DNA of 64,000 nucleotides. It comes from Moorellales bacterium. Its GTDB lineage: Bacteria > Bacillota > DSM-521 > Neomoorellales > SLTJ01. The translations under genes were made by a program, and so were the position numbers. Each line of letters opens with the position of its first letter. Position 1 is the first letter of the stretch. The stretch is taken from NCBI GenBank assembly GCA_049719955.1, contig JBNARC010000002.1, positions 77,626 through 141,625 of the forward strand, written 5' to 3'. The notes under the pieces were generated by a model. The model ran no database searches. It was given only the letters and a program-made list of their open reading frames with translations, and was not told the origin of the DNA. This document shows positions 7,664 through 61,240 of the stretch, piece after piece.

Positions 7664-7690
7664 CCCTCCTTTTACCCTGACGAATGCCCC

Positions 7691-7732
7691 CCGGCAAGGT
7701 GCCAATGTACCTAGGGAAGACCCGGAACCGCC
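7691..7732 (-). repeat. Half-copy of the structured repeat family (GAGTACATTGG arm plus one closing-stem strand)
   Basis: CCGGCAAGGTGCCAATGTACCTAGGGAAGACCCGGAACCGCC aligns with the 3' end of the full copy at 60944-61154. Confidence 0.6.
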
Positions 7733-7761
7733 TGCCCACTCTAAACTGGGAATAACTACCA

Positions 7762-19560: not shown

Positions 19561-19594
19561 GGTCTAATCCCTCCCGTGCCCATTTCTCACGAGG

Positions 19595-19645
19595 CTAGTA
19601 GTGTCTGGCGCCGCCCTCGACGTTGATACTCTGTCCGGTTATAAA
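19595..19645 (-). pseudogene. Orphan 3' stub of an SDR gene (last 16 codons plus stop)
   Basis: Minus-strand FITGQSINVEGGARHY* against FITGQNINVEGGARHY* at the end of the intact SDR 20147..20914. No upstream SDR reading frame. Confidence 0.6.
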
Positions 19646-19767
19646 CCGCCGCCATGTACCGCCGTCCAAAGGACAGTACCAAGTGGGCAGTATGGTCACG
19701 AAAGCCGCCTGAAGGCCCTGAATTAATTATAGCCCTTCAATATAAATTAAGAATATCGGGGAAGTAT

Positions 19768-20007: not shown

Positions 20008-20146
20008 CTACAATATACGGTTATCAAAGACCGGTTTCTCTGGGCCAACCGATTACTAACACAGGCTGCTAGAAGCCCTTCTGGCCACCGTTTTCCGCTT
20101 CGCGGTCGGCGGTGGCGTTGAGTTGGGTGGCGCCCAGCGGCACACG

Positions 20147-20914
20147 CTAGTAATGGCGGGCACCGCCCTCTACGTTGATGTTCTGTCCGGTTATGAACCC
20201 ACTATCGTCCGAGGCCAAGAATACCAACACTCCTTCCAAATCCTCGGGCTCCATAGGACGCTTGAAGATGCGCTGCTCCATAGCCACCTTGTAGATAAAC
20301 TCCATTTCGGCCGGGTCGCTGGCAAGCCCCTTGGCCGCCTCGGTCATAGTGAACCCCGGCGTAATGGAGTTCACCCTGATCCCGTACTCTCCCACCTCGC
20401 GAGCCAACGCCCGGGTTAGCGCCCAAATTGCTCCCTTAGAGGCCACATAGTGGCTCAGCAAGGGAGCGCCCTCGATGATGGTGGCGGAGGAAATATTGAT
20501 GATTACCCCTCCACCCTGTTTTTTCATCTGCGGCACTACCGCCCGGCAACAGTTCCAGACCCCCTTCACGTTTACGGCGAAGACCGCGTCCCACTCTTCC
20601 TCCGGGATCGCGTCGAAAGGCTTTAGTTTAAGCCCTCCCAAAAAGGCCGCGTTGTTTACCAAAATGTCGATACGGCCGAACGCGCCCACGGTTTCTTCCG
20701 CCATTTGCTTCACCCGGTCGAATCGGGTTACGTCTACCTGTATACCCAGTACTTCACTCCCCTGAGCTTTGAGCAGGTCTACGGTGCCACCCGGGTCGAG
20801 AATATCGGCCACCACCACCCTGGCGCCCTCCCGACCCAGGCGCCGTGCGAACACCCGGCCGATCCCGCGAGCCGCGCCCGTAACTATGGCCACCCGGCCC
20901 TCCAACCCCGGCAC
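20147..20914 (-). CDS. Short-chain dehydrogenase/reductase (FabG-like)
   Basis: 255 aa. VAIVTGAARGIG, NNAA, and Y..ASK catalytic pattern (SHYVASKGA). Confidence 0.9.
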   Translation of the reverse strand: MPGLEGRVAIVTGAARGIGRVFARRLGREGARVVVADILDPGGTVDLLKAQGSEVLGIQVDVTRFDRVKQMAEETVGAFGRIDILVNNAAFLGGLKLKPFDAIPEEEWDAVFAVNVKGVWNCCRAVVPQMKKQGGGVIINISSATIIEGAPLLSHYVASKGAIWALTRALAREVGEYGIRVNSITPGFTMTEAAKGLASDPAEMEFIYKVAMEQRIFKRPMEPEDLEGVLVFLASDDSGFITGQNINVEGGARHY

Positions 20915-29532: not shown

Positions 29533-29568
29533 GGCCGAACGGCGCTGACGTATCCCCTGTTTCCTCCA

Positions 29569-29653
29569 GGCGGTACCGGGTGCTCCCCGTTCGAACTATC
29601 ACCTCGCCGGGCTCGGTGCGCAAGATTGCCTTAGCGGGTCTGGTTCCCACCGC
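29569..29653 (-). repeat. Short-form copy of the structured repeat family
   Basis: GGCGGTACCGGGTGCTCCCCGTTCGAACTATCACCTCGCCGG... shares the closing-stem strand and the CACCTCGCCG arm with the full copies. Confidence 0.6.
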
Positions 29654-30419: not shown

Positions 30420-30493
30420 GATCTCGCTCCTCTGCCTTCCCTCCCGGGTGGGCAGTAAACCTCCGGCGGCTTTCTCCCACTCCGGCTTCCCAT

Positions 30494-30566
30494 GGGCGGT
30501 ACCGGGTGTTCGCCGTTCGTACCGTCACTTCGCCGACGATACTTGCGCTCAGTCCGGCGCCCCGCC
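30494..30566 (-). repeat. Short-form repeat copy overlapping the 3' end of the radical SAM CDS
   Basis: GGGCGGTACCGGGTGTTCGCCGTTCGTACCGTCACTTCGCCGACGATACTTGCGCTCAG... is near-identical to the copy at 48490-48564. Confidence 0.65.
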
Positions 30567-36840: not shown

Positions 36841-36870
36841 CCCTCCCCACCTGAACGTCGTGCCGCGACC

Positions 36871-37086
36871 CCGGCGGGCAGGGTTGGATTCCCCGAGTAC
36901 ATTGGAGCCTCGCCGGGCACCGAGCTTAGCGAGGGCAAGCCTGGAGGCGGGCCGAAGGCCACGGATGGCCGAAGCGGCGGGGCGCCATGGACGGCGCTTC
37001 CGCCGGGCGCCCGCCGGAGGGCGAAGCCCGAGCCCTAGCTCGGTCGGCGAGGCGAGAGTACGAGGGGAACCAACCCCGCCCGCCGG
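36871..37086 (+). repeat. Full-length structured palindromic repeat, copy B (216 nt)
   Basis: Closing stem CCGGCGGGCAGGGTTGGATTCCCC / GGGGAACCAACCCCGCCCGCCGG. Core shared with copies at 46864 and 60944 (GAGTACATTGG, TCGCCGGG, AGGCCACGGA, GGACGGCGC, GAGCCCTAG, GGTCGGCGAGG). Confidence 0.85.
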
Positions 37087-37156
37087 ATAACGCGCCTTGC
37101 CCCAGGGGCCTTGCCTCGGGGCCTGTCCGGTTAAATTCTATGCCCCACCGCTGCGG

Positions 37157-38224
37157 TTATGCCTCCCGGTTGGAAACTCCCGCCTCGCCGAAGGTGGCCA
37201 TCTCCCGCAGGATCTTCACCGCCGCCTCCACGATGGGCATCACCAGCGCCGCGCCGGTGCCCTCTCCCAGCCGCAGGTCCATAAAGAGAATGGGTTTGAG
37301 CCCCATGAGCTCGAGCATGACCCGGTGGGCGGGCTCGGCCGATTGGTGGGAGGCCAAGAGGTAGTCCCGCACCGGCGGTGCCAGGCCCACGGCGATCAGC
37401 GCCGCCGCGGCGGAGATGAGCCCGTCCACCAGCACCGCGCCCCGGGCTGCCGCTACCCCTATGGCCACTCCGGCCAGGCCCGCGATCTCCAGCCCTCCCA
37501 CCTTGCACAGGACGTCCCAGGCGTCGCGCGGATCGGGCCGGTTCTCCGCCAGGGCCTGCTCCAGGCAGCGGATCTTCTTTTTGAGCCGTTCGTCGTCCAC
37601 TCCCGTGCCCCGGCCGGTCAGCTCGGCTACCGGAAGGCCGCTGTACACCGCGGCGATGGCGGTGCTGGCGCTGGTGTTGGCGATACCCATGTCGCCCAGG
37701 GCCACCAATCGCGCCCCTCGGCCTACCACCTCCCGGGCCACCTCCAGGCCCACGGCTACGGCCCGCTCGGCCTCCTGCCGGGTCATGGCCGGACCGCGGG
37801 TGAAGTTCCGGGTGCCGTAGGCCACCTTGCGGCTCAACACCCCGGGAATTAACGGCAGGTCCCGGGCCACGCCGATATCTACCACCACCAGCTCCGCCCC
37901 GACGTGGCGGCTGAGCACGCTCATGGCCGCGCCGCCCCGGGCGAAGTTGGCCACCATCTGGGCGGTTACCTCTTGAGGAAAGGCGCTAACCCCTTCCTCG
38001 GCCACGCCGTGGTCCGCGGCCATCAGCACCGCCGCCTTCTTGGGCAACTCCGGCAGGGCCTCGCCGGTGATGGCCGCCAGGTGCGCGGCCAGATCCTCCA
38101 GCCGTCCCAGGCTGCCCTGGGGTTTGGTCAGATCGTCCAGACGGAGGCGGGCGGCCCGGCGCGCCTCCTCGTTTAGCTCGGGAATGCTCGGCAGTTCCAG
38201 CATGCTAGAAACCATACCCCCCAT
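37157..38224 (-). CDS. cobT: Nicotinate-nucleotide--dimethylbenzimidazole phosphoribosyltransferase
   Basis: 355 aa. RLDDLTKPQGSLGRLEDLA signature. The functional start may be the ATG 21 nt inside (MLELPSIP...). Confidence 0.9.
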   Translation of the reverse strand: MGGMVSSMLELPSIPELNEEARRAARLRLDDLTKPQGSLGRLEDLAAHLAAITGEALPELPKKAAVLMAADHGVAEEGVSAFPQEVTAQMVANFARGGAAMSVLSRHVGAELVVVDIGVARDLPLIPGVLSRKVAYGTRNFTRGPAMTRQEAERAVAVGLEVAREVVGRGARLVALGDMGIANTSASTAIAAVYSGLPVAELTGRGTGVDDERLKKKIRCLEQALAENRPDPRDAWDVLCKVGGLEIAGLAGVAIGVAAARGAVLVDGLISAAAALIAVGLAPPVRDYLLASHQSAEPAHRVMLELMGLKPILFMDLRLGEGTGAALVMPIVEAAVKILREMATFGEAGVSNREA

Positions 38225-38284: not shown

Positions 38285-38510
38285 GCCATCGTCCCGGTCC
38301 GCCCCGCGCCCGGCGCGGGTTAATTTCTGGACGGGCAGGTCTCCTGGCTTCCTTCCTCGCCCTCCTTCCCTTCCCCGGGCGGTAGCGGCTAGACTCCGCC
38401 CCGACCGAGTGGGTCCGGCCGGCGGAAAAAGGAGGGCTCCGGTTCACAGTGGCGGGACCGCGCAGGATTCGCACCTGCTTCCCTATTCTCCGGGCCAACG
38501 CCCGGCACCC
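38236..38510 (-). promoter_or_regulatory. Cobalamin (B12) riboswitch
   Basis: Minus strand shows AATAGGGAAGCAGGTGCGAATCCTGCGCGGTCCCGCCACTGTGA core and B12 box AGCCAGGAGACCTGCC (38334-38349). Confidence 0.88.
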
Positions 38511-38570
38511 GCCCAGCTAGGTTGTTCAGAAACCCATATTCTACTTCCCTCCGGTTTTTCCTTCCGCCCG

Positions 38571-44777: not shown

Positions 44778-45818
44778 TTAGCTCAAGTGCCGGGTCGGCA
44801 GCAGCACCCGCTTGAGCACTTCGATGTTCTCTAACACCTTGCCGGTACCCAGGGCCACCGCCGCCAGGGGATTCTCGGCCAGGTTCACCGGCATCCCCGT
44901 CTCCTCCGCCGCCAGGGCGTCCAGCCCCCACAGCAGCGACCCGCCACCGGCCATAACTATCCCGCGGTCCATGATGTCCGCGGCCAGTTCCGGCGGCGTC
45001 TTCTCCAGGCAGGTCTTTATGGCCTCCAGGATGGCCGCAACCGGCTCGGACAGAGCCTGGCTGATTTCCTCGGCGCTCACCTCAATGGTCTTGGGCAAGC
45101 CCGTAACCAGGTCCCGGCCCCGCACCGGGTACACCCGGCGCCGGCGCTCCCGGCTTTGCTCGTCATCGCCGAAATAGGCGGCGCCGATCTCTATCTTGAT
45201 CTCCTCTGCCGTGCGCTCGCCCACCATGAGGTTATAAGCCCGCTTTATATACTGCACGATGGCCTCGTCCATCTCGTCTCCCCCGATGCGGATCGACCGG
45301 CTGGTTACGATCCCGCCCAGGGAAATAACCGCCACCTCGGTGGTGCCGCCGCCGATGTCCACGATCATGCTGCCCATGGGCTCGTGGACCGGCAGCCCCG
45401 CGCCAATGGCCGCGGCCATGGGCTCTTCTATAAGGTAGACTTCCTTGGCTCCGGCCTGCAGGGCCGCCTCGCGCACCGCCCGCTCCTCCACCGCTGTCAC
45501 TCCGGAGGGCACGCCTATCACCACCCGGGGCCGCACCAGTCGGCTTCCGCCCAGGGCCTTGTTAATGAAATAGCGCAGCATGGCATGGGTGGTATCGAAA
45601 TCGGCGATGACTCCGTCTTTCATGGGCCGGATGGCCACGATGCTGCCCGGTGTCCGGCCGATCATGCGCTTGGCCTCTTCCCCCACCGCCAGGATGGTGC
45701 CGGTCTCGCGCTGCAGGGCTACCACCGAGGGCTCGTATAGTACGATTCCCTTGCCGCGAACGTACACCAAACTGTTGGCCGTTCCTAGATCAATCCCCAC
45801 GTCCCTGGCAAAGAGCAT
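44778..45818 (-). CDS. mreB: Actin-like rod shape-determining protein MreB
   Basis: 346 aa. [22 protein letters not shown], full MreB pattern. Confidence 0.95.
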
Positions 45819-45851
45819 GAAAGCTCTCCTTCCTTATGAAATGCCGCCTCA

Positions 45852-45880
45852 ATTATAGTACAGGCCCCTAGGGGGAGCAA
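45852..45880 (-). promoter_or_regulatory. Sigma-A-type promoter of mreBCD
   Basis: TTGCTC, 17-nt spacer, TATAAT on the minus strand. Confidence 0.55.
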
Positions 45881-45891
45881 GGGAAACATTT

Positions 45892-45910
45892 GGGGAGCAG
45901 CCGGTACCGC
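45892..45910 (-). repeat. Fragment of the repeat closing-stem sequence
   Basis: Minus strand GCGGTACCGGCTGCTCCCC against GCGGTACCGGGTGCTCCCC at 29570. Confidence 0.35.
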
Positions 45911-45946
45911 TTCCGCCCCAAGCCGGGCACACACCGGGACAATTGG

Positions 45947-46786
45947 CTATGCGTTAAGCAACCCCTGCTCCTTGAAGCTCACGTAGCGGCCGTCCCCTAT
46001 CACCAGGTGATCCAGCACGGCAATACCCAGTATGTTACCCGCCTGCACCAGCCGCCTGGTTACCTCTATGTCCTCGGCGCTGGGGGTGGGATCGCCGCTG
46101 GGATGGTTATGTATCAGGATCACCGAGGCGGCGCTGTGCATTACCGCCCGCTTGAACACCTCCCGGGGGTGCACCAGAGAGGAATTGAGGCTGCCTACGG
46201 AGATGGTGTCCAAATACAGCACCCGGTTCTTGGTGTTAAGGGAAAGGGTGCGGAAGTGCTCCCGGTCCAGGTAGCGCATCTCCTCCATCACCAGCTCCGC
46301 CACCTCGGCCGGAGAGCGGATGACCGGCCGACTGCTGGGAGCGGTCTGGGCCAATCGCCGGCCCAACTCCACCGCCGCCTTCACCTGCGCCGCCTTGGCC
46401 GGCCCCATACCTTTTACCGCCGCCAACTCCGCCAGGCCGGCCCGGGCCAGATACTCCCGACCCCGGGGCTGGGCCAAGAGCCTGTGGGCCAGTTCCAGAG
46501 CGCTCTCTTCCGCCCAACCGGTGCGCAAGATTATTGCCAGCAGTTCGGCGTCGGAGAGCGCCTCCGGGCCCAGTCGGGCCAAGCGCTCCCGGGGCCGCAC
46601 CTCCTCCGGCAGAGACTTGATGCCCACCCGGTAGCTTGGCGGTGCTTCCGGCGGCACCGGGGCCCGGCCGGGGTCTACTGGCCCGGGCGTCAAGGCCGCC
46701 CTCTCCTCCACCCGTCCGTCTTCCTTAATCTTGCGCCTACGGCCGGTCTTCCCGCCCGAACCGCCGGACTCTTGTCTACCAGCCAC
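45947..46786 (-). CDS. radC: RadC-family JAB-domain protein
   Basis: 279 aa. RPRERLARLGPEALSDAELLAIILRTG and HNHPSGDPTPS motifs. Arg/Gly-rich N-terminal extension makes the start uncertain. Confidence 0.85.
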   Translation of the reverse strand: MAGRQESGGSGGKTGRRRKIKEDGRVEERAALTPGPVDPGRAPVPPEAPPSYRVGIKSLPEEVRPRERLARLGPEALSDAELLAIILRTGWAEESALELAHRLLAQPRGREYLARAGLAELAAVKGMGPAKAAQVKAAVELGRRLAQTAPSSRPVIRSPAEVAELVMEEMRYLDREHFRTLSLNTKNRVLYLDTISVGSLNSSLVHPREVFKRAVMHSAASVILIHNHPSGDPTPSAEDIEVTRRLVQAGNILGIAVLDHLVIGDGRYVSFKEQGLLNA

Positions 46787-46863
46787 CTTTCTCCCCCCAG
46801 CCAGGTTATCCCTATCTCCCTTGGGTCAAGTTACCCCCACTTCGAAGGCGACTTGGGTTGACT

Positions 46864-47074
46864 GGCGGTACCGGGTCTCGCCTGAGTACATTGGCAACTC
46901 GCCGGGCACCGAACTTGGCGAGGCCGAGCGCGAAGGCGGGCCGGAGGCCACGGACGGCCGCAGCCGAGGAGCGCCATGGACGGCGCTTCCGAGGGGAGCC
47001 CGCCGTAGCGCGAAGGCTGAGCCCTAGTTTGGTCGGCGAGGTGACAGTACGAACGGCGAGCACCCGGTACCGCC
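46864..47074 (+). repeat. Full-length structured palindromic repeat, copy A (211 nt)
   Basis: Closing stem GGCGGTACCGGGTCTCGCC / GGCGAGCACCCGGTACCGCC. Paired arms and two apical hairpins with loops ACGGAC and ATGGAC. Confidence 0.85.
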
Positions 47075-47117
47075 CGTGGGAAGGTAGGATTACGTCAGCC
47101 CTTGAGGCCCTTTGTCG

Positions 47118-48415: not shown

Positions 48416-48489
48416 GCCTCGTCCCTCCTGGCAACAGAGCCGTTACTGTCAAGCCTACCGGCCATGAAACGTATTCCAAGCTTCCCCTA

Positions 48490-48564
48490 GGCGGTACCGG
48501 GTGCTCCCTTTCGTACTGTCACCTCGCCGACGATACTTGCGCTCGGCCTGCACCCGGTACCGCC
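48490..48564 (-). repeat. Short-form repeat copy (75 nt) with intact closing stem
   Basis: GGCGGTACCGGGTGC...GCACCCGGTACCGCC encloses TTCGTACTGTCACCTCGCCGACGATACTTGCGCTCGG. Confidence 0.75.
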
Positions 48565-48590
48565 AGAGCCAACTCAAGGCCGGGGATAAC

Positions 48591-49943
48591 TCAGCTACCG
48601 GCCCCCACACCATCGTCCCGGAGCGCGGCTCCCGGTGCCCATCGCTCCATACGCGCCCGGGCCTCACCCACCAGATAGAAAGAACCGGTAACCAGCACCA
48701 TATCCTCTTCCCCGGCCAGGCCTAACGCCCGATCCAGGGCGGCGTCCAAATCCGCCTCGGCGTACACCGCGCCCACGTGCCTGGCCGCCATACTCGCCAC
48801 CTTTTCCCAATCCCCCGCCCGGGGACTGAGGGGGCGGGTGACCACCACCGCCGCCGCCAAAGGGGCCAAAAGATCCATTATCGCCTCCCTCTCCTTGTCG
48901 GCCAGAAGCCCCACCACCAGGATGATCCGGCGAAAGGCCAGCCGCTCCACCGCCGCCCGCAGGGCCCGGGCGGCGTCCCGATTATGGGCGGCATCGAACG
49001 CCAGGAGCGGGCGGGTGGGCCAAAGCTCCAGCCGGGCCGGCCAGCTCACCCGGGCCAGACCCTCGCGCACCGCCTCCGGCCCGAGCTCAAGCCCCCGGAA
49101 GCGGGCCAGTACTTCGGCCGCCAACACGGCGGTAGCGGCGTTCGCCAGTTGGTGCGGTCCCAACAGAGGCAAGAAGAGTTCGGGATATTCCCGCCCCATC
49201 ACCGTGAGGTCGAAGCGCTGGCCCCGGGTATCCGCTTCCCGGGGCCGGATTTGGGTTTCTTCCTGCACCACGAAAAGCCGGGCCTCTACCTCCCGGCAAC
49301 GTTCTCTGACCGCCTCCAGGGCCTCCCCTTCGGCGGCGGTGACCGCGAAGCCGCCGGGCTTTATTATCCCCGCCTTGGTCCGGGCGATGGCCTCCAGGGT
49401 GCGGCCCAGGTGCTCCATGTGATCCCAACCCACGTTGGTGATCACGCTCACCAGGGGCATAGGGACGGCGTTGGTGGCGTCGTGCTCCCCGCCCATCCCT
49501 ACCTCCATTACCGCCACCTCTACCCCTTGCTCCCGGAAGCCCGCCCAGGCCATGGCGGTGAGCACCTCAAACTCCGTGGGCTCCTCGCCCCGTTCCGCCG
49601 CCAGCCCGGCCACCGCCGGCCGTACCGCTTCCACCAGCCGGGCGAACTCCTCGGGATTTATGGGTCGGCCGTCAATGCGGAAGCGTTCGGTGTAGGAAAC
49701 CAAATGAGGGGAAGTAAAAAGGCCGGTGCGGTAACCGGCCGCTTGCAGTATGCTGGCCAGCATGGCCGCCGTAGACCCCTTGCCGTTAGTGCCCCCCACG
49801 TGAACCACCGGCAGGTCCAGATGGGGATTACCCAGCCGCTCCAGTAGATCCCGGATGCGGTCCAGCCCCAGGTGGATGCCCAGGCGCAGGTAGCTTTCCA
49901 AATAGGCGACGGCTTCTCGGTAGTCCAAGGTTGCTCTCCCCAA
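48591..49943 (-). CDS. folC: Folylpolyglutamate synthase / dihydrofolate synthase
   Basis: 450 aa. VHVGGTNGKGST P-loop and Mur-ligase pattern. Confidence 0.9.
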   Translation of the reverse strand: MGRATLDYREAVAYLESYLRLGIHLGLDRIRDLLERLGNPHLDLPVVHVGGTNGKGSTAAMLASILQAAGYRTGLFTSPHLVSYTERFRIDGRPINPEEFARLVEAVRPAVAGLAAERGEEPTEFEVLTAMAWAGFREQGVEVAVMEVGMGGEHDATNAVPMPLVSVITNVGWDHMEHLGRTLEAIARTKAGIIKPGGFAVTAAEGEALEAVRERCREVEARLFVVQEETQIRPREADTRGQRFDLTVMGREYPELFLPLLGPHQLANAATAVLAAEVLARFRGLELGPEAVREGLARVSWPARLELWPTRPLLAFDAAHNRDAARALRAAVERLAFRRIILVVGLLADKEREAIMDLLAPLAAAVVVTRPLSPRAGDWEKVASMAARHVGAVYAEADLDAALDRALGLAGEEDMVLVTGSFYLVGEARARMERWAPGAALRDDGVGAGS

Positions 49944-52684: not shown

Positions 52685-52690
52685 GACTTA

Positions 52691-52734
52691 AGCTCGGCAC
52701 CCGGCGAGCTGCCAATGTACTCAGGAGAGCACCC
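52691..52734 (-). repeat. Half-copy of the repeat family between lon and the valS promoter
   Basis: AGCTCGGCACCCGGCGAGCTGCCAATGTACTCAGGAGAGCACCC matches the GAGTACATTGG arm. Confidence 0.6.
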
Positions 52735-52766
52735 ATGCCTGCCCGCAAACCCGAGCCAGCGACAAC

Positions 52767-55109
52767 TCAGGCCGACGACCGGCCGTTCACCAGGGCGTGG
52801 GGCAGCACCTCGTCCATGTGCCCCACCAGGATGAACTGCATCTTGCGCCGGATGTTGGCCGGGATCTCCTCCAGGTTCTTCTCGTTCTCCCGGGGCAGGA
52901 TTACGGTCTTAATCCCCGCCCGGTGCGCGGCCAGCACCTTCTCCTTAATGCCCCCCACCGGCAGCACCCGGCCGCGCAGGGTGATCTCTCCGGTCATGGC
53001 CACGTCGCGGCGCACCGGCTGGTTGGTCAGGGAAGAGGCCAGGGCCGTGGCCATGGTTATTCCCGCACTGGGCCCGTCCTTGGGGATGGCCCCCTCGGGC
53101 ACGTGGATGTGGAGGTCATACTTCTCGTAGAAATCCTCGGGAATGCCCAGCTCCTGAGCTTTAGAGCGGATGTAGCTAAACCCTGCCTGGGCGGATTCCC
53201 GCATCACCTCGCCCAGCTTGCCGGTAAGGGTGAGGTTACCCTTGCCCTTCACCACCGTGGCCTCCACGCTCAGCACTTCCCCGCCGTTCTCGGTCCAGGC
53301 CAGGCCCGTGGCCACCCCTACCTGGTTCTCTTCGTCAATGACTCCGTAGCGGTAGCGGGGTATGCCCAGCCAGTGGGGCAGGCTCTGGCTGCTCACCTTA
53401 ACGCTTTGCGCCTTACCGGTCACGATATCCCGGGCCACTTTCCGGCAGATGGTGGCTATCTGCCGCTCTAGATTCCGCACCCCCGCCTCCCGGGTGTACT
53501 CCCGGATTATGCGTCGGATGGCGTTCTCGGAGAGGCTGAGCTGCTTGGGCTTAAGCCCGTGCTCCTTGAGCTGGCGGGGCAGAAGGTGGCGGAGCGCAAT
53601 CTGCACCTTCTCCTCCTCGGTGTAGCCCGAGATGGTGATTACTTCCATCCGGTCCAGAAGCGGCCGGGGAATGGTATGCACCACGTTGGCGGTGGTGATG
53701 AAGAACACCTTGGAAAGATCAAAGGGCGATTCTATATAATGATCGCTGAAAGCGTGGTTCTGCTCCGGGTCCAGCACCTCCAGCAGCGCCGAGGTGGGGT
53801 CGCCCCGGAAGTCCATGCCCACCTTGTCGATCTCGTCCAGAAGGAACACCGGGTTCTTGGTGCCCGCCTGCTTCATGCCCTGGATGATGCGTCCGGGCAG
53901 GGCCCCCACGTAGGTGCGGCGGTGCCCCCGGATCTCGGCCTCGTCCCGAATGCCCCCCAGGGAGATGCGCACAAATTTCCGGCCCATGGCCCGGGCGATG
54001 GACTTGGCCAGCGAGGTCTTGCCCACCCCGGGCGGTCCTACAAAGCACAGGATGGGGCCCTTCATCTTCCGGGCCAGCTTGCGGATGGCCAGGTACTCCA
54101 GGATGCGGTCCTTAACCTCTTTCAGCCCGTAGTGGTCCTCATCCAGAATCTTCTCCGCCAGGGCCACGTCCAGCCGGTCCCTGGTCTGCTCGGCCCAAGG
54201 CAGGGACAGGAGCCAGTCCAGGTAGTTACGCACCACCGTGGCTTCGGCCACCATGGGCGGCATCTTTTCCAGCCGCTCTACTTCCTTAAGCGCCTTCTCC
54301 CGCACCTCTTTGGGCAGCCGGGCCTTGTCGATGCGCTCCCTAAGCTCCTCCACTTCCGCCGCCCGCTCGTCCTTCTCGCCCAGCTCCTTCTGGATGGCCT
54401 TTATCTGCTCCCGCAGGTAGTACTCCTTCTGGGTCTTTTCCATCTGCTTGCGCACCCGCTGGTTGATGCGCCGCTCCAGCTCCAGAATCTCCATCTCCTG
54501 GGCCAGAATGCGCAGCAAGAGCTCCAGCCTCTCCTTGACCTCCAGGGCCTCCAGCAGGGCCTGCTTGTCGGCCAGCTTAAGGTTCAGGTGGGCGGCGATG
54601 GCGTCCGCCAGCCGGCCGGGGTCGTCCAGGTTGGAAACCGTAACCACCGTCTCCGGCGGGATCTTCTTGCTGTTCTTCACGTACTCCTCAAATTGGTCCA
54701 GCAACGCCCGCACCAGGGCGTCTATCTCTACGTCCCGCTCCACCGGCGGCGAGCTTACCTGCACCTCCACCTCGAGATAAGGCTCCAGGCGCAGGAACCG
54801 CAAGATCACCCCTCGGGCCAATCCTTCCACCAGAATGCGGATGGTGCCTCCCGGCAGCTTCAGGAGTTGCTTAATCTCCGCCACCGTACCCACGGCGAAG
54901 ATGTCGCCCTCTCCGGGGTCGTCCGTCTCCGCCTCTTTCTGCATGGCCAGAAGTATGCGCCGGTCCTCCAGCATGGCCTGGTCAATAGCCGCCACCGACT
55001 TCTCCCGGCCCACGTCCAGGTGCACCACCATATGGGGGAACACCGCCACTCCCCGCAGGGGGAGCAAGGGTATGGTCCGTATCTCGCTGCCGCGTGGAAC
55101 CCGTAGCAT
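52767..55109 (-). CDS. lon: ATP-dependent protease LonA
   Basis: 780 aa. N-domain [18 protein letters not shown]+ GPPGVGKTS, protease DGPSAGITM. Confidence 0.95.
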
Positions 55110-60778: not shown

Positions 60779-60866
60779 TGGTGCGGGCGGGGGGACTTGA
60801 ACCCCCATGGGCCTGACACCCACCAGATCCTAAGTCTGGCGCGTCTGCCAGTTCCGCCACGCCCGC
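60779..60866 (-). tRNA. tRNA-Leu (anticodon UAG), CCA encoded
   Basis: GCGGGCG acceptor stem / CGCCCGC-ACCA. Anticodon arm CCAGA-CTTAGGA-TCTGG. Long variable arm. T-arm GGGGG-TTCAAGT-CCCCC. Confidence 0.9.
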
Positions 60867-60943
60867 CCGGCGATTTAAGCCTACCACATCGATTCCGCCA
60901 GCGTCAAGGGGTAGGAGCTCTGAGCGGATTCCCAGTTTGCCTT

Positions 60944-61154
60944 GGGCGGTTCGGGGTCTCCCCTTCGTACTGTCACCTCGCCGACCGAACTAGGGCTCGG
61001 GCTTCGCCCTCCGGCGGGCACTCGGCGGAGGCGCCGTCCGTGGCGCCCCGCCGCTTCGGCCGTCCGTGGCCTCCGGCCCGCCTTCGGACCTGCCCTTGCC
61101 AAGTTCGGTTCCCGGCGAAGTGCCAATGTACTCAGAGGAGACCCCGAACCGCCC
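60944..61154 (-). repeat. Full-length structured palindromic repeat, copy C (211 nt, inverted relative to copies A and B)
   Basis: Perfect 18-bp closing stem GGGCGGTTCGGGGTCTCC / GGAGACCCCGAACCGCCC. Same core as copies A and B when read on the minus strand. Confidence 0.85.
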
Positions 61155-61240
61155 GGCCACCCGCAACCGGAGATAACTCAGGTAGAGAAGGCCGACGCCC
61201 CTCCTTGACCGCGCCGCCGGCTTGTGTTACCTTGGGAGCG

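Follow-up and report, generated by a model that had tools for sequence, protein, structure and literature searches.

In the window, by which we mean the whole 64-kb stretch of Moorellales DNA that was analyzed, a repeat referred to here as copy B occupies the spacer between a cobT-like gene (37157 to 38224) and a gene for an M23 peptidase, just downstream of cobT. A cobalamin riboswitch (38317 to 38527, minus strand, 99.4 bits) is located directly upstream of the cobT-like gene, and the M23-peptidase gene, to judge by the gene order (maf-radC-mreBCD-minCDE...), is presumably the counterpart of Bacillus spoIVFA. Immediately after the cobT stop codon, the motif GCATA(G/T)(A/G)AT..GGACAGGC (37120 to 37145, minus strand; approximately 11060 to 11085 in the relative L008) was kept in five related genomes, unlike the rest of the spacer, with equivalents in L010, L037, and L038. 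Judging from this conservation, we guess that the spoIVFA-like M23-peptidase gene may have a sporulation-sigma-type promoter (CATAnnnT) here. The motif was not detected by a sigma-70 scan, which returned no promoter near B, and no terminator was found at B.

The whole extent of copy B, including the decayed remnants of its terminal repeats, is 36845 to 37103 (plus strand), as delimited by reading the sequence and by an nhmmer profile of seven full copies, in which B matched positions 15 to 277 of 288 with E = 1.7e-61. Only the remnants TCCCCAC on the left and GGATAAC on the right are left of the terminal repeats. The 24-nt 5' arm of the closing stem, CCGGCGGGCAGGGTTGGATTCCCC (36871 to 36894, plus strand), and the 23-nt 3' arm, GGGGAACCAACCCCGCCCGCCGG (37064 to 37086, plus strand), form 22 to 23 bp and enclose a 170-nt core. 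In the consensus structure, the core of B runs from 36895 to 37063 (plus strand), starts with GAGTACATTGG, ends with GAGTACGA, and consists of a long imperfect helix leading to a three-way apex with two hairpins, the loops of which are ACGGAT and ATGGAC. Its identity is 88% to the core of copy C and 84% to that of copy A. Folding of the 228-nt B region gave one long hairpin of -158.2 kcal/mol, compared with -112.5 ± 5.0 kcal/mol for dinucleotide shuffles (z = -9.2), and the complementary strand folded nearly as strongly (z = -8.1). The 5' arm of B paired with its own 3' arm at -45.5 kcal/mol, compared with -18.6 ± 3.4 kcal/mol when the 3' arm was shuffled (best -29.1, n = 200) and -20 to -32 kcal/mol with the 3' arms of A, C, L001, L002, L003, and L007.

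The 64-kb window contains three full and five partial copies of the repeat, in both orientations and all intergenic. The full and young copy A (46826 to 47098, plus strand) has terminal repeats and is flanked by CCCTTGGG (46818 to 46825) and CCCTTGAG (47099 to 47106), a near-perfect target duplication with seven of eight bases in common. Copy C (60920 to 61181, minus strand), also full, carries the terminal repeat CTGAGTTATCTCC and the closing stem GGCGGTTCGGGGTCTCC / GGAGACCCCGAACCGCC, and its target duplication is degenerate. A gene for tRNA-Leu (anticodon TAG; 60779 to 60866, minus strand) lies on the same strand as copy C, approximately 54 nt downstream of it. A short copy with an internal deletion (48464 to 48594, minus strand) retained the terminal repeats and the closing stem, GGCGGTACCGGGTGC / GCACCCGGTACCGCC, and is bordered by the exact 9-bp duplication CTACCGGCC at 48455 to 48463 and 48595 to 48603.

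The remaining copies in the window are halves. One 3'-half copy with an intact terminal repeat (CTGACGTATCCCC at 29545 to 29557) lies downstream of the DUF2344 gene (29545 to 29609, minus strand), and another lies between the radical-SAM and DUF2344 genes (30482 to 30561, minus strand), where the spacer in L008 is only 18 nt long. The radical-SAM reading frame ends within the partial copy (GGACTGAGCG; 30549 to 30561, minus strand), giving a C-terminus unlike that in L008. The 5'-half copies are situated between lon and valS (52690 to 52771, minus strand) and at 7690 to 7757 (minus strand). The stop codon TGA of lon sits in the terminal CCTGAGTT of the half copy (52763 to 52771, minus strand). 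Downstream of this half copy and upstream of valS, the segment 52615 to 52690 (minus strand) has a promoter-like TTGACT-17-TAAGAT followed by the hairpin CTCCTT...AAGGAG and a T-run, which looks like a leader or an attenuator; according to Rfam there is no T-box there. A 54-nt direct repeat with 85% identity (19594 to 19647 and 20146 to 20199, 552 nt apart) is unrelated to the family.

The termini of the young copies are CTGAGTTATCCCC or CTGACGTATCCCC, with the overall form CTGA(G/C)(T/G)TATCCCC...GGGGATAACTCAG, and these ends occur only at copy boundaries, with three matches in the window against 0.34 expected. The same terminal repeats were present in L003, L007, L002, and L044; their sequence is conserved among the young copies, as a transposase site should be, and decayed in B. 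The copy in L003 is flanked by the exact 9-bp duplication CGGAGCCTG, and a clear target duplication was seen neither at L007, L002, and copy F, the ends of which are recognizable, nor at B. At positions 2 to 80 of L044, a 3' arm like those of B and copy D is followed by an intact GGATAACTCAG end. This arm adjoins an intact end, and B remains homologous to the family beyond its closing stem; both findings place the stem inside the element, with which it travels. The initial annotation had set the closing stem beside the inverted repeats that a transposase recognizes; that comparison was misplaced, because the true terminal repeats, with their 9-bp target duplications, lie further out, and the closing stem is thus not the transposase site.

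The stretch separating the terminal repeat from the 5' closing arm contains a short tandem motif, (C/T)TGAGTT(A/G)AC (L044, about 100 to 150; L003, about 425 to 450; window, 46845 to 46863), with about two units in L003 and about four in copy F of L044; it is minisatellite-like and has no partner on the 3' side. The elements are 130 to 290 nt long and contain no credible open reading frame. At the gathering score, Rfam 15 gave only the cobalamin riboswitch and tRNA in the window and no family for the element, and an E-value search with copy C yielded only sub-threshold matches far below the gathering scores, microRNA models among them. No match to an IS10-like transposase was obtained by tblastn in the window and about 150 kb of related loci, and no autonomous insertion sequence with these ends was found there. 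Because the ends match those of IS10 at 10 to 11 of 13 bases and the 9-bp duplication is the same, the repeats are a family of miniature inverted-repeat transposable elements (MITEs) with IS4/IS10-type ends in an uncultured Moorellales lineage.

All sequences come from metagenome assemblies, in which repeats can be collapsed or chimeric. Two scans of species-representative genomes with conserved motifs of 19 to 21 bases gave no real copy (0 and 23 chance matches), and a metagenome scan gave four full copies (L001, L002, L003, and L007), two copies cut by contig ends, and one chance match. L025, L027, L030, and L031 ("Lapin" rabbit-gut Clostridia metagenome-assembled genomes) share 24 identical nt with the apex motif GCGCCATGGACGGCGCTTCCG and otherwise have no similarity to the element; the match is probably a conserved gene segment. 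The cobT and valS proteins assign the window to a "Moorellales bacterium" metagenome-assembled genome. Further copies were found on contigs of relatives: L008/L043, the cobT protein of which is 85% identical, contain B' and D; L043/L044 contain E; and L044 has F with a truncated neighbor. In about 45 kb of L010/L045 (cobT identity 81%) no copy was found, and the near-identical strain L042 (99.46% over 20 kb) carried the same copies as the window. Gain and loss of copies between genomes was observed at individual spacers, too: the Maf-RadC spacers of L008 and L010 lack copy A, copy D occupies the RadC-MreB spacer in L008 only, and the half copies around DUF2344 are specific to the window and missing in relatives.

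In the RadC-MreB spacer of the window (45818 to 45947), GGCGGAAGCGGTACCGG resembles the 3' core of copy D, which may be due to a remnant of a deleted copy or to chance. Copy E of L043 was considered as an orthologue of the half copy at 52690 to 52771 and dropped; because its orientation is opposite, E is treated as an independent insertion. The segment 16369 to 16592 of L044 is a chimera, in which a D-type 5' arm and core are joined to a type-1 3' arm, and it coincides exactly with a synteny break with the near-identical L043, MreB being replaced by an aldehyde dehydrogenase gene. Its position at the break indicates either that dispersed copies recombined or that the assembly went wrong at the repeat; for assembly work, the case marks these repeats as sites where recombination or misassembly occurs.

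The 11 full copies, drawn from the window, relatives, and metagenomes, are related by descent. In this enlarged sample, the closing stems did not turn out to be often non-complementary, as would be expected if the pairing in the window were fortuitous: a complementary stem of 19 to 23 bp lies directly outside the core in all 11, and the stem of the short copy at 48464 to 48594 is complementary, too. In a cross-pairing matrix of nine of the 11 full copies, cognate arms paired at -44 to -49 kcal/mol, arms of other classes at about -18 to -33 kcal/mol, and shuffled arms at about -19 ± 3.5 kcal/mol. At least four mutually incompatible classes of closing stem were distinguished (type 1, B/B', D, and E). 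The type 1 stem, GGCGGTACCGGGTGCTC, occurs in the compensated variants GGTACC/GGTACC, GGTTCC/GGAACC, GGTAGC/GCTACC, and GGTTCG/CGAACC. Copies at unrelated loci have stem classes in common: A, L003, L007, F, and the short copy all carry type 1, and D, E, and positions 2 to 80 of L044 carry the D-like class; the single case of a non-cognate arm pair is the chimera in L044.

The closing stem of B had been described as self-complementary and completely different from that of copy A. Its arms are indeed complementary to each other at the coordinates given above and do not pair with the arms of other copies, so that B belongs to an incompatible class, but "completely different" slightly overstates the case, since the GGCGG.../...CCGCC ends are kept and the position-wise identity to the common stem is about 65%. 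The stem quoted for copy A needs a small correction: the quoted string is the reverse complement of the 3' arm of A, and the actual 5' arm, GGCGGTACCGGGT-CTCGCC, is one base shorter.

The core varies in the same manner. In the alignment of the 11 copies, the consensus has 44 pairs with 97.7% of cells paired, and eight of the 44 pairs were changed on both sides, a number reached by none of 500 shuffles, with 0 to 3 in slid controls. The compensated A>G change that had been noted in the arm of B, CCGAGCT (36920 to 36926, plus strand) opposite AGCTCGG (37037 to 37043, plus strand), was confirmed at columns 30/147, where eight copies have A-U, B and B' have G-C, and L002 has A.C as an apparent intermediate; the G.U pair reported for A was found at columns 28/149 in A and its close relatives. 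One-sided changes in the core were mostly G.U; counted as events read off the alignment, G.U and A.C occurred about 6 versus 4 times. With these two about equal and with copies in both orientations relative to transcription, no single RNA strand is indicated. In both the closing stem and the core, pairing has been preserved far beyond chance although the sequence has changed, and this central claim of the initial annotation is now borne out by the cross-pairing matrix, the eight core pairs, and the retention of the stem in the orthologues B and B'.

The orthologue B' (11126 to 11341 in L008) has the same site, stem class, and orientation as B, and its presence at the same site in this relative makes B an ancient insertion that predates the split between the species of the window and L008. 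B and B' are 81% identical, compared with 59 to 62% in the flanking spacer, and the synonymous p-distance between the window and L008 is 0.40 for cobT (dS 0.58) and 0.48 for the M23-peptidase gene (dS 0.76). Change at the orthologous site was thus slower than at synonymous positions, and the differences affected 16% of the paired columns versus 39% of the unpaired ones. At this locus, the only one with demonstrable orthology, the closing stems of B and B' each have at most one broken pair of 23. Retention of at most one broken pair in 23 in both orthologues had P = 1e-5 to 7e-5 in simulations at the synonymous rate and P = 0.02 at the mean rate of the element itself. Compensated differences between the two are GGTTGG/CCAACC versus GGTCGG/CCGACC and CCGAGCT/AGCTCGG versus CCGGGCT/AGCCCGG. 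Altogether, two double changes keep pairing and three break it, which is no better than neutral, and the argument for maintenance is built on the rates and the closing stem. Between B and B', 12 pairs are broken on one side, shifts of the alignment being partly to blame; the core of B' has 12 to 15 broken pairs, and its apex loops are lost. The change estimated from core identities is about 4.5% on the branch of B and 12.5% on that of B'. Pairing is actively maintained, both across the lineages of the family and in place. The element is absent at the B site in L010 and L037, and it is therefore dispensable for the flanking genes.

On balance, B is probably an old, immobilized IS10-like (IS4 family) MITE, the hairpin of which has been kept because the folded single strand matters. 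The full element is one long imperfect palindrome of about 260 to 290 nt, composed from the outside inward of terminal repeats of 13 or more nt, CTGA(G/C)(T/G)TATCCCC, as the putative transposase site, a spacer, the uninterrupted closing stem of 19 to 23 bp, and the 170-nt core with its three-way apex, and its insertion duplicates 9 bp of the target. As an internal part, the closing stem exists in incompatible versions in different lineages of the family, that of B being the version of an early lineage. After the insertion of B between cobT and the M23-peptidase gene, before the species of the window and L008 separated, the terminal repeats and the target duplication decayed and the hairpin was kept. 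The folded strand would most likely be the transcript of the operon or of the 5' leader that holds the element, in which a helix of at least 20 bp is predicted to be capable of serving as an RNase III-type processing or stabilizing element. Alternatively, the hairpin might simply keep the insert harmless, with no exposed start sites and no unstructured RNA. Single mismatches in the hairpin would then be removed or compensated.

The main rival accepts the same MITE family and attributes the pairing to a functionless process at the DNA level, namely, hairpin-templated correction. The hairpin formed on single-stranded replicating DNA would act as a template (intramolecular template switching or arm-to-arm conversion), and a change in one arm would be reverted or its complement copied to the other arm, producing "compensatory" changes without selection. 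In E. coli, quasi-palindromes are known to undergo such correction (Ripley 1982; Lovett and co-workers), and we regard it as a possible, if less probable, account of B. It agrees with the equal folding of both strands of B, with the lack of a strand bias of G.U over A.C intermediates, with copies in both orientations relative to genes, and with the dispensability of the element at the B site in other relatives. The decay of the outer repeats of B beyond a large asymmetric loop, the continuous inner helix being spared, is also what hairpin nucleation predicts. Asymmetries that correction should have evened out (ATTGG opposite TGACA, the GGGNA bulge, and two different apex hairpins) nevertheless persist in nearly all copies, 12 to 15 core pairs stay broken and uncorrected in B', and the conservation between B and B' far above the flanks extends to unpaired columns, for which arm-to-arm correction alone is insufficient. 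Selection on a folded single strand, most likely a transcript, is favored for three reasons: conservation well beyond that of the flanks extends to every part of the element, paired or not; the helix asymmetries are conserved without symmetrization; and what stays constant in the closing stem is a perfect helix of some two turns, its sequence being free to vary, as in the RNase III-processed MITE hairpins of the Correia type. Selection and templated correction are not mutually exclusive.

Two further accounts would deny either that the stem belongs to the element or that the element is mobile, and we consider both very improbable. The closing stem of B could be foreign if the core had inserted in the loop of a pre-existing palindrome, such as a terminator or another repeat, in which case every copy would have a host hairpin of its own as its closing stem. 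Some insertion sequences do target palindromes (PMC3184786), the core is bounded by GTAC...GTAC and far better conserved than the surrounding stems, and at least four stems look unrelated. Insertion into a palindromic target was nevertheless rejected, given that the stem is enclosed by the terminal repeats and target duplications and that stem classes are common to copies at unrelated loci; moreover, the profile homology of B continues beyond the stem, and no copy of a stem without the core sequence was seen. A multi-copy structured noncoding RNA gene that is not a mobile element would explain the strong fold (z = -9.2), the covariation in the core, and the conserved apex loops of the form AYGGAC. 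It is hard to reconcile with the occurrence of the copies in both orientations, many of them truncated, with terminal repeats accompanied by 9-bp duplications, and with presence that varies between close relatives, and neither an Rfam match nor promoter or terminator signals were found for it.

A bolder reading, on which the internal hairpin is more than ballast of a selfish element, is speculative and rather unlikely. The hairpin may be a functional module, made up of a sequence-free perfect helix of about two turns and a conserved three-way apex with twin AYGGAC loops, that is needed for propagation of the family or has been repeatedly co-opted by hosts. If it had a role in propagation, this would imply a folded single-strand intermediate or a site for a host factor, unusual for an IS4-type element. 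If it was co-opted, B at the cobT/spoIVFA-like leader would have been under purifying selection since before the two species diverged.

At least eight repeat copies in the window are accounted for by this abundant MITE family, which had not been described before; annotating them as RNA genes or regulatory sites would therefore require evidence. The family offers a clean natural case of compensatory changes in palindromic mobile elements, in which selection on transcripts can be set against templated correction of DNA. It is useful material for this, as it includes orthologous copies of great age, young ones that retain their ends, and several stem classes incompatible with each other. Its layout is unusual in that a core of conserved sequence is enclosed by a perfect inner helix of variable sequence.

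Among the nearest known systems is MIC231 of Bacillus cereus, a mini-element of the IS4 family; a search of the literature for MITEs of the IS4 family that duplicate 9 bp gave nothing directly relevant. IS10 itself (IS10/ISVsa5) has, in the annotated record of E. coli 203740, the ends CTGATGAATCCCC... and ...GGGGATCTCTCAG and the 9-bp duplication GGCCAAGCT. It shares with the Moorellales element the arrangement CTGA-NNN-ATCCCC and the length of the duplication, the ends of the MITE being identical to the outside end of IS10 at 10 of 13 bases and to the inside end at 11 of 13. The Moorellales element differs in having no transposase gene, in its body, a long GC-rich palindrome unrelated to the IS10 sequence, and in its host, a thermophile-related Moorellales lineage and not Enterobacteria.

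The inverted repeats of the Correia elements of Neisseria (NEMIS) are reported to form a long perfect helix in transcripts that is cleaved by RNase III (De Gregorio et al. 2003). Like the Moorellales family, these are MITEs with a long helix that occur in operons and leaders; however, their helix is made by the terminal repeats and their target duplication is TA, whereas the helix of the Moorellales element is internal and its sequence varies by sublineage. An uninterrupted helix of the Correia-like length of about 20 bp or more is approached or attained in all 11 full copies (19 to 23 bp), and cleavage by RNase III is a prediction. Conservation of structure and not of sequence in a palindromic site related to mobile elements is also known from REP/BIME sequences with RAYT transposases and from the attC sites of integrons. 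REPs are 20 to 40 nt long and lack terminal repeats of the DDE type and 9-bp duplications; this reading was rejected, as the defining features of REPs were not found in the element. Sites of the attC type, which lack such terminal repeats and duplications as well, are 57 to 141 nt long, have R'' (RYYYAAC) and R' (GTTRRRY) core sites, and stand in cassette arrays beside an integrase. An attC reading was likewise discarded: only B has the pair GTTGGAT/AACCAAC, in the wrong arrangement and lost in B', and the flanking genes are housekeeping genes.

Long stable RNA stem-loops are a classic feature of MITEs in general, and in bcr1 of the Bacillus cereus group compensatory base-pair changes keep the double-stranded structure, the stability of which is lost in some copies (PMC3184786). 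The likeness to bcr1 is extensive, both being intergenic mobile repeats of Firmicutes with a target duplication, a patchy distribution between close strains, and compensatory changes. In contrast to the Moorellales element, which is approximately 270 nt long with a 9-bp duplication and IS10-like ends, bcr1 has about 155 bp, a 5-bp duplication, and another sequence. The family is new in sequence and host, whereas the kind of object, a MITE hairpin with compensatory changes such as bcr1, is known.
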